This document shows, one piece after another, positions 90 through 860 of a stretch of DNA of 42,480 nucleotides (position 1 is its first letter; each line of letters opens with the position of its first letter). The notes below the pieces were generated by a model, which was not told where the DNA came from, searched no databases, and saw only the letters and a program-made list of their open reading frames with translations. Source of the stretch: Escherichia phage EC22.5-2; sequence record OR845139; one strand, written 5' to 3'. The translations under genes and the position numbers were made by a program.

Positions 90-860
90 CTAGATGGCTA
101 TCCCTAGTGCGCTCTAGGAGGGCCGTAGAAGCTCCCTGCGTGCCTTAATGGTTATCCCTAGTGCTATCCTATGCCTATCACTGTGCGCCTCTTGTGGAGG
201 CTCTGGGAAGCTCTGGGAGGCACTAGGGTTATCCCTGCGTGCGCTCTGGGTGCTCTGCGTGCTCTCTGTGGGGCGTAGAGGTGCGCTCTGCCTTGCTTAT
301 TTTGTGCGGTCGTAGTGCCGCACCTAGTGGGCCAGTAGTGGGCCATAGTGTGACCTCTAGCGGGCCTCTAGTGGGCCGCCCAGTGCGCTGCTAGTGCGTC
401 TATATGCTATCTCTAGAGCTATCTCTAGGGTTATCTCTAGTGCTTTACATTGTGCCGATTATATGCTACGCTGCGCGCTCCCCACTAGGGCGCACATCCA
501 CTGCTCACCACTATCCGCCACCTAGCGTTATCCCTTGCTATCCCTAGAGCTATCCCTCTACCCTTACTTTCATTCGAAAGCTAATTGGAAATGATGTTAC
601 ACGAGTAGGAGGGTTTTAGGGCACTACATATACACTACCTACTACTACTCACTAGTATCCTCTAGTAATGCCCTGTATTACGACCGTAGGGAGTAAGCAT
701 TACCTACACAGTCACCGCATCGCTCCGTGTCCTTTCACTACGTCCGGACACTACGCTCCGCTCTATGTAGTACCGTGTAGTGTTGGCTAGTATTGGTTAG
801 CACTGGTTAGTATTGGCTAGTATTGGGCTATCACTAGAGCTATCCCTAGAATGGAAGCAT
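90..860. repeat. Left-end non-coding region packed with short degenerate repeats (ctatccctag-like, tagtgggcc-like, tattggYtag tandem units, gctctg units)
   Basis: Many copies of ctatccctag / ttatccctag / ctatctctag (e.g. 98..107, 152..161), about 5 tandem tattggYtag units near 781..826, tagtgggcc units near 325..385; no plausible ORF. Confidence 0.7.
594..610 (+). promoter_or_regulatory. Copy 1 of conserved motif ATGTTACA(C/G)GAGTAGGA, candidate phage RNA polymerase promoter
   Basis: atgttacacgagtagga; matches 20722..20738 and 32301..32317 at 16 of 17 positions; located in non-coding left end. Confidence 0.4.

Follow-up and report, generated by a model that had tools for sequence, protein, structure and literature searches.

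The window analyzed here is sequence record OR845139, 42,480 nucleotides (nt) from Escherichia phage EC22.5-2, and constitutes the complete genome of a KP34-like podovirus (Autographiviridae, Slopekvirinae, Drulisvirus) of the T7 supergroup; the feature under study is the interval 90-860 near its left end, which an earlier inspection of the letters alone (the original prediction) had described as a repeat-packed non-coding region. The genome encodes the small and large terminase subunits (36192-36494, phrog_891, E = 2e-31, and 36494-38350, respectively), a single-subunit RNA polymerase (RNAP) and a DnaG-type primase. A search with the first 1500 nt matched 248-251 records, nearly all of them Drulisvirus phages of Klebsiella or Escherichia, with the best matches (84-87%) to Escherichia phages Minorna, phiHAO78-1 and AV102 and to Shigella phage SFN6B; outside the genus, no nucleotide homology to the left end was detectable by BLAST. 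The interval is a non-coding, cis-acting control region at the left end of Drulisvirus genomes and the counterpart of the terminal repeat and short-repeat array of T7. Its anatomy, its conservation, the orientation of its repeat units and the orthology of its promoter are matters of direct observation and are described first.

A quantitative scan bears out the repeat density that had been claimed. The interval contains 80 repeated 8-mers, against 8.5 ± 4.4 (maximum 22) in 268 segments of equal length from the rest of the genome and 10.1 ± 4.3 (maximum 23) in 500 dinucleotide shuffles of the interval itself, and repeat scores at k = 7, 9 and 10 agree with this result. All families named in the original prediction (ctatccctag-, tagtgggcc- and gctctg-like units and a tandem array) were recovered, and are referred to here as units A, B, C and D. 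The tetranucleotide CTAG, which had been noted as strikingly frequent, indeed occurs 21 times in the 771 nt (27/kb), approximately ten times more densely than elsewhere in the genome (2.6/kb). Dinucleotide shuffles of the region contain 11.4 ± 2.7 copies and a Markov expectation from CTA, TAG and TA gives 18.3, close to the observed number, indicating that the excess stems from the repeat units and not from selection for the palindrome. When one mismatch was allowed, counts of the units over the whole genome did not rise above those in shuffled sequence; the signal resides in the clustering and in the exact copies.

Unit A (YTATCNCTAG) is present in eight exact copies, all on the plus strand and within 98-849, and is found nowhere else in the genome on either strand. 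Four degenerate copies at 175, 229, 528 and 550 bring the total to 12 copies of the GCTATCYCTAG type on the plus strand and none on the minus strand, with a period of 12 nt. They are distributed over four groups: copies of the form RGYTATCYCTAGWGC at 98-236 inside the terminal repeat (full at 98-107 and 152-161, degenerate at 175-182 and 229-236), a triple at 405-443 with 12-nt period (copies at 407, 419 and 431), a cluster at 526-559 (528 degenerate, 538 full, 550 degenerate), and a pair at 826-850 (828 and 840, again with 12-nt period) that is kept in six of eight relatives. The remaining families are likewise read on the plus strand. Unit B forms an array at 324-377, in which Tandem Repeats Finder (TRF) reports 4.9 copies of the 11-nt unit CTAGTGGGCCA and TAGYGGGCC occurs four times (325-377). 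Unit C forms arrays at 196-290 (2.3 copies of GGAAGCTCTG and 2.6 copies of GCTCTGCGT) that are iterations of the motif GCGCTCTG; GCTCTG occurs five times at 200-290, and the last copy of the unit spans the right boundary of the terminal repeat. Unit D is an array of 4.9 copies of the 10-nt TAGTATTGGY at 778-827; the approximately five tandem tattggYtag units first noticed at 781-826 are this same array (five TAGTATTGGY) in another register. Unit E (ACTAC / (C)TCACTAGTA) is repeated at 643-668, in the transcribed leader.

The genome's physical termini were placed by homology. Positions 1-77 are an exact copy of 42404-42480 that stops within a poly-G run, and this 77-nt overlap is probably a circularization artefact of the assembler (k = 77) and not the true terminal repeat. 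With an overlap of the assembler type, the window itself does not display the true terminal repeat, and what is called the left end is a deduced end. The direct terminal repeat is assigned to 12-288 (~277 nt, plus strand), beginning with CCTCACCCT and ending with ...GGTGCGCTC; with both repeat copies, the true genome length comes to ~42,680 bp. The annotated repeats of seven Drulisvirus records start and end at homologous points, to within 2 nt, although their lengths are 216 (KP34), 267 (SAA231), 311 (JKT6), 245 (AttikonH1N2), 243 (KpV475), 214 (KpV41) and 224 nt (phiBO1E). All seven begin with CC(C)TCACCCT, and despite the range of 214-311 nt all seven end with ...GGGGTGCGCTC immediately before CCTTGCTTATTTTG, with a TG falling on one or the other side of the boundary. 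The first base of at least nine records corresponds by homology to position 12-13 of the window. The differences in repeat length among relatives arise in the internal arrays. Three deviating repeat annotations were set aside, namely those of KPPK108.2 (170 nt), NKA196 (167 nt, starting 74 nt upstream) and NNA-G4, which are probably coverage-based estimates. Since the repeat boundaries are homologous in the seven annotated relatives, positions 90-288 lie inside the terminal repeat; the view that the arrays stand beside the terminal repeat thus applies to the stretch beyond 288 and fails for this first quarter or so of the interval.

Two landmarks lie between the inferred physical end at position 12 and the interval. 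The palindrome CCCCCATAGGGGG (36-48) is located 25 nt from that end and is invariant (identity 1.00) in eight relatives. A poly-G tract of 12 G (67-78, plus strand) is likely a slippage hot spot and probably caused the assembly break; its length among relatives ranges from interrupted short runs (for example GGGGGCGGGG in KP34) to more than 20 uninterrupted G. On the other side of the junction, the right-end copy of the repeat is preceded by the conserved sequence AACCTGGACCTAAAATTTATTAGACTCAC (42375-42403, plus strand), which is shared with KP34, KpV74, SFN6B, phiHAO78-1 and NKA196; KP34 and KpV74 share a well-conserved stretch of ~29 nt adjoining the repeat (AACCTGGACCTRAAATTTATTAGACTCAC), of which only the final ~13 nt are conserved in all relatives examined. 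The 110 nt between the tailspike stop codon (42293) and the junction contain no unit A, B or D and thus no right-side array. In KP34 (43478-43593) and KpV74 (last 130 nt), TATCYCTGG/CCCTGG units are present in the stretch from the tailspike gene to the right copy of the repeat.

A junction-like sequence was also encountered in a very different phage. Positions 1201-1242 of Escherichia phage ukendt (NC_052661, a 151-kb Phapecoctavirus) are 90% identical over 42 nt to the Drulisvirus junction (CCCTCCCTCACCCTCAACGCGCCCAATTGCC...), with the palindrome changed on both arms (CCTCCATAGGAGG). This stretch lies ~145 nt after a tail spike gene and may be a relic of the transfer of a tailspike module from a Drulisvirus right end.

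Across the genus, the repeats are a persistent and strictly oriented property of the left end. An unbiased k-mer count over 15 non-identical Drulisvirus left ends ranks GCTATCCC first, with 59 copies on the plus strand and none on the minus strand; at least two copies are present in each of the 15 left ends, and the other 40.8 kb of the present genome hold 1 + 1. In each phage, the stretch from the palindrome to the first host promoter holds 3-12 copies of unit A and the 700 nt beyond it 0-1; the highest number is that of this window. In an alignment of eight left ends with a regional mean conservation of 0.74, which is the source of the conservation values given here, the unit A copies at 152, 419, 431, 550 and 840 act as anchors with values of 0.80-1.00: the copy at 152 is conserved in all eight relatives, those at 419 and 431 reach 0.93 and 0.84, and the copy at 550 is invariant in the eight. 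The extra copies at 98, 407 and 538 score 0.25-0.46 and are lineage-specific. Arrays B and C are the least conserved parts of the region (0.59-0.68). Exact TAGYGGGCC copies of unit B number one or two in six of seven relatives and are absent from KPPK108.2; relatives carry one to five copies of unit D that match TAGYRYTGG exactly, with degenerate units aligned alongside, and one to four copies of the 10-11-nt unit E. The alignment suggests a small number of constrained, oriented sites accompanied by extra copies that slippage would generate, a pattern that is hard to reconcile with neutral debris.

The picture of a region packed with repeats is accurate for the arrays but incomplete, as these alternate in the alignment with constrained unique elements: a box, a 60-nt block, a promoter and a hairpin. 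The junction box TGCCTTGCTTATTTTG (289-304, plus strand) follows directly after the terminal repeat with 0.98 identity in eight relatives and stands at the repeat boundary in the seven annotated ones. No other long stretch of the left end is as conserved as the block 441-500 (60 nt, plus strand; 0.97 identity in eight relatives), which is non-coding and exceeds in conservation the ortholog of a validated promoter described below. Read by eye, the block contains TTTACA-N17(TGc)-TACGCT, possibly a sigma-70 promoter of the extended -10 type, and then CCCCACTAGGG; the promoter scan did not call a promoter at 441-500.

The stretch 560-664 (identity 0.88-0.91) includes a predicted phage RNAP promoter, TGATGTTACACGAGTA, at 592-607 on the plus strand with a predicted +1 at 608, which is the positional counterpart of phiOL of T7. 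It shares 15 of 16 bases with nt 475-490 of KP34 (TGATGTTACAGGAGTA), C replacing G at position 11. The KP34 16-mer drives KP34 RNAP in vitro as efficiently as the major promoter, and transcription starts directly after it (Lu et al. 2019, PMC6834552). From this alignment, 592-607 is the ortholog of an in vitro validated KP34 RNAP promoter, and its activity is predicted. Copies of the strong KP34 RNAP promoter (TAATGTTACAGGAGTA) are found at 20720-20738, after the RNAP gene, and at 32299-32317, inside the gene for a 1232-aa internal virion protein. The variant TAATGTGATACGAGTA is located at 12716-12734 in the intergenic gap 12594-12857 and is conserved in KP34 at 12985, a site that is absent from the promoters reported by Lu et al. 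2019.

A stem-loop of 7 + 4 bp at 665-703 on the plus strand, 57-96 nt downstream of where the phage-promoter transcript is predicted to start, could serve as an RNA processing or pause element. Three consecutive pairs of its stem are changed on both sides (AUG/CAU and UGU/ACA haplotypes) with pairing kept in 10 of 10 sequences. Host-type promoters begin after 860 and upstream of the first gene (1514-1729), all on the plus strand: an A-rich tract followed by TTGCTT-N18-TATAGT at 923-952, recognized by eye; TTGACA-N17-TAGATT at 1055-1083, called by the scan; and TTGACA-N17-TAACTT at 1212-1240. These sequences also appear among the host promoters compiled for KP34-like phages (PMC4411677 Table 3). 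Neither a Chi, DnaA-box or IHF consensus nor ATCTGTT occurs in the first 1300 nt, which are also free of GATC and CCWGG (~1.1 and ~3.8 expected from the genome-wide density). An Rfam scan of 1-1600 at E ≤ 1 returned two sub-threshold chance matches to eukaryotic families and none at gathering score.

The resemblance to the ends of T7-like genomes that had been suggested for this region is well founded. Nine reference Autographiviridae from four subfamilies were compared at the sequence level, and strongly oriented short units (6-8 nt) were found both inside the terminal repeat and in an array just beyond it in T7, T3, SP6, K1-5, gh-1, phiKMV and LKA1, with VP93 as the exception. In T7 the unit is CCTAAAG, with 11 exact copies, or 17 of C[CAT]TAAAG, at a 13-nt period and one copy on the opposite strand. 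In T3, C[CAT]TAAAG occurs 12 times with three copies on the opposite strand. No opposite-strand copies accompany the CTTAGTG units of SP6 and K1-5 (7-10 copies), the CCATAGG units of gh-1 (six copies) or the CCCTGG-type units of phiKMV and LKA1 (4-6 copies).

The terminal palindrome is shared more widely still. Eight of the nine reference genomes carry a palindrome CCCC(C)RTAGGG(G) at a distance of 24-29 nt from their left physical end; VP93 has none. The form CCCCCATAGGGGG is identical at nt 26-38 of T7 and KP34, and variants at 24-29 nt occur in T3, gh-1, SP6 (29-38), K1-5, phiKMV (26-35) and LKA1. The 14-mer CCCCCATAGGGGGT occupies nt 26-39 in T7 and KP34 and nt 25-38 from the inferred end in the present phage. 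As a family-defining feature, the palindrome at fixed offset would be a generalization from nine reference genomes. An exact IMG/VR scan for CCCCCATAGGGGGT returned at least 120 loci, mostly in unrelated contexts, as expected of a 14-mer in a huge collection, and served to harvest further Drulisvirus left ends and a few T7-like ends.

A box also directly follows the repeat in several of these phages: ATCTGTT in T7 and T3, TCTGTT in SP6 (with TA before the boundary), CCTTGCCTCT in phiKMV, TGCCTCTTTTG in LKA1 and TGCCTTGCTTATTTTG in Drulisvirus. ATCTGTT is the class II signal at which T7 RNA polymerase pauses or terminates in the concatemer junction. RNAP pausing is on record for T7 (Lyakhov 1997).

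The order of elements in T7 (160-bp repeat, pause site, SRL array at nt 175-340, phiOL, A1-A3) is the same as here. As in T7, the unit occurs inside the repeat and in an array beyond it (3 + ~12 copies with 13-nt period in T7, 4 + 8 with 12-nt period here), the units share one orientation, a pyrimidine/T-rich conserved box stands exactly at the right boundary of the repeat, and a phage-polymerase promoter separates the array from the host promoters. The two regions differ in the unit itself (GCTATCYCTAG here, CCTAAAG in T7), in the number of unit families (at least five here, one in T7) and in extent, with ~860 nt preceding the first strong host promoter here and ~400 nt in T7. They differ also in the box, TGCCTTGCTTATTTTG replacing ATCTGTT, to which a pause role here would be ascribed by analogy; in the further arrays and the hairpin that follow the phage promoter here; and in the right-side array (SRR), which T7 has and this phage lacks. 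The Krylovirinae phiKMV and LKA1 and the Molineuxvirinae SP6 and K1-5 likewise combine oriented arrays with a palindrome variant at 24-29 nt but differ from Drulisvirus in unit sequences and repeat lengths; directly behind their terminal repeats, phiKMV and LKA1 share a TGCCT.../CCTTGC... box. The ends of T7 have been known to carry such arrays ever since its genome was sequenced, and the Drulisvirus region adds another example. The searchable literature, outside which much of the older work on T7, T3 and SP6 lies, yielded no account of the arrays in Drulisvirus, of the boundary box or of a fixed-offset palindrome across subfamilies.

The position of the arrays suggests a role in concatemer processing or packaging. 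Our preferred reading, to which we assign a probability of about one half, is that the left-end repeats are oriented protein-binding sites of a concatemer-junction and packaging module, most likely for the small terminase. In a concatemer, a single terminal repeat would join two genomes and terminase would have to cut twice there. The oriented units in and beyond the repeat would offer many binding sites of low affinity, through which the packaging machinery (most likely the small terminase together with the large subunit) would be loaded and oriented, possibly assisted, as in T7, by stalling of RNA polymerase at the junction box. The cuts would be placed between 11 and 12 and between 288 and 289, with duplication of the terminal repeat, and a few anchor copies of the unit would be conserved as the remaining copies expand and contract by slippage.

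Precedents for such an arrangement exist in other packaging systems. In lambda (cosB, R1-R3) and in SPP1 and P22 (pac), several short repeated sites adjoin the terminase cut and give orientation. Units A and C, with several oriented sites within 10-190 nt of the inferred cuts, resemble pac and cosB in this respect. The systems differ in that small-terminase binding has been demonstrated at cosB and pac, to few sites (3-7), whereas the sites here are putative, more numerous and variable, and in that the genome ends here are exact direct repeats in place of cohesive (cos) or headful (pac) ends. As the units differ between subfamilies within the same layout, a phage-encoded partner is more plausible than a universal host one; likewise, the lack of Chi, DnaA-box and IHF consensus sequences in the first 1300 nt gives no support to an array for a host factor or to a DnaA-type origin.

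Several points weigh against a packaging module. We know of no binding, footprint or genetic data for the units, in Drulisvirus or in T7; no established function of the T7 SRL array, and no experiment on a concatemer-processing or packaging role of the arrays in T7 or Drulisvirus, was found in the searchable literature. The right-side array of KP34 and KpV74 is missing here, which excludes a requirement for symmetric arrays. The copy number of the unit ranges from 3 to 12 among viable relatives, such that no particular number can be needed, and the terminal repeat of this isolate is assigned by homology. Furthermore, the essential packaging signals of T7 reportedly lie mostly on the right-end side, and packaging is said to start from the right, as attributed to Chung and Hinkle in 1990 and to Son and Serwer in 1988. 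If this holds, the left arrays would act late, in termination or repeat duplication, or outside packaging altogether.

A more general version of the packaging-module reading can be put forward tentatively. The units may be degenerate iterations of the half-site of the terminal palindrome, constituting one end-recognition code that would be shared by at least four subfamilies and read by one end-binding activity. This possibility, which we regard as doubtful, comes from comparing CCCTAG/CTAGGG here, CCATAGG in gh-1, CCTAAAG in T7, CCTTAGT in SP6 and CCCTGG in phiKMV with the palindrome CCCCCRTAGGGGG. Equally speculative is the nature of the reader, which might be terminase or another phage protein, with the unit tuned to it in each genus.

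Among the alternatives, a replication element is conceivable but unlikely. The units and the phiOL-type promoter would then serve as a terminal (secondary) origin, or as clustered sites for primase, and let lagging-strand synthesis begin as near the left end as possible. The units flank the phage RNAP promoter at 592-607, and phiOL and phiOR of T7 are associated with secondary origins. Their strict strand orientation would suit a template-strand-specific primase site, and a DnaG-type primase is encoded in the window; in T7, the primase site is TGGTC, and the T7 array carries repeats of its complement GACCA. However, no recognition sequence is on record for a primase of the KP34 type, half of the units lie inside the terminal repeat beside the cleavage sites, and the first 1300 nt hold no DnaA box. 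Neither is there a marked AT-rich unwinding element, with a GC content of 45-48% in 500-800 against 47-52% among the early genes nearby (1500-2500). The region does share with iteron origins the short direct repeats of one orientation in non-coding DNA, but its units are 10-12 nt and not 17-22 nt long and the hallmarks of an iteron-type origin are lacking: no initiator gene adjoins it, the nearest gene being that of a 71-aa protein at 1514, and neither a DnaA box nor a clear AT-rich unwinding element is present.

An element for genome entry and early transcription is also improbable, although several features are consistent with it. In such a case the arrays, mainly D and the unit A pair at 826-850, would bind or bend DNA to recruit host RNAP, or the region would be a gene-free leader that is internalized before transcription pulls in the rest, the left end being the first into the cell. 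In T7, entry driven by transcription begins once the leading 850 bp are inside. The 10-nt period of array D is helical, and 75-145 nt separate the array from the A-tract and TTGCTT-N18-TATAGT promoter downstream of it; the block 441-500 is readable by eye as an extended -10 promoter, and the first 1300 nt are devoid of GATC and CCWGG. Against this stands the location of units A, B and C, in part within the terminal repeat and 350-950 nt upstream of the host promoters. The units are repeated, moreover, at the right end of KP34 and KpV74, which enters last, and the T7 array of the same kind is upstream of all rightward promoters.

It is quite improbable that the repeats are a neutral by-product, that is, debris of slippage and recombination near recombinogenic ends that has no sequence-specific function. 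Close relatives do differ widely in how many copies of units A, B, C, D and E they carry, arrays B and C are the least conserved parts of the region, and the length of the terminal repeat changes through its internal repeats. Nevertheless, the orientation bias is absolute (59:0), the unit persists even though left ends in the genus are only 68-86% identical, the anchor copies are conserved above the regional mean, and the architecture is found again in four subfamilies, built from other unit sequences.

Finally, that the region encodes small proteins, as annotated in some GenBank records ('hypothetical protein' in Minorna, AttikonH1N2, Hope and others), can be dismissed almost entirely: the six open reading frames (ORFs) of 40-60 aa present here are interrupted by stops and non-triplet indels in relatives, none being retained full-length in nine relatives (tblastn), TAG is very dense on both strands, and two overlapping frames over 394-547 look equally 'conserved', which places the constraint at the nucleotide level. 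The absence of a credible ORF from 90-860, as originally proposed, is thereby upheld. The first real gene (1514-1729, 71 aa) is full-length in seven of the same nine relatives at 87-97% identity and partial in one, and was not found in the remaining one within the first 2000 nt searched.

Further observations were made in the early leader and around this first gene. The 15-nt sequence GGCGCTGAGGCGCTG, which is itself GGCGCTGA in tandem, is repeated exactly at 966-980 and 1371-1385, 405 nt apart, and a third GGCGCTGAG is present at 1568. Hairpins at 1446-1502 and 1735-1766 with the common stem TAGCATCC...GGGTGCTA directly flank the first gene and may be RNA processing sites or terminator-like elements. 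The sequence AGCCTATAGC... (1735-1766), predicted in 2015 to be a 'phage promoter', was considered as a comparator for the promoter at 592-607 and rejected, having proved inactive with KP34 RNAP in vitro (PMC6834552).

Drulisvirus phages are among the most used in Klebsiella therapy, and hundreds of their genomes have been deposited with arbitrary start points and with spurious small genes in this region. The landmarks described here, namely the start CCTCACCCT, the palindrome at +25, the boundary at which ...GCGCTC meets TGCCTTGCTTATTTTG, and the phiOL-type promoter, fix the physical ends and curb such mis-annotation, and the region defines what synthetic or rebooted KP34-like genomes and transducing particles must retain. 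To a T7 specialist the feature will be unsurprising, yet it is real, has a clear structure and can be put to use in annotation and engineering. Because the layout recurs from T7 to phiKMV with genus-specific units, the long-unexplained terminal arrays become testable by comparison and by unit swapping. Should the units prove to be iterations of the palindrome half-site, this would provide a function for the SRL and SRR arrays of T7, described in 1983, and a sequence rule that predicts the physical ends of T7-supergroup genomes.

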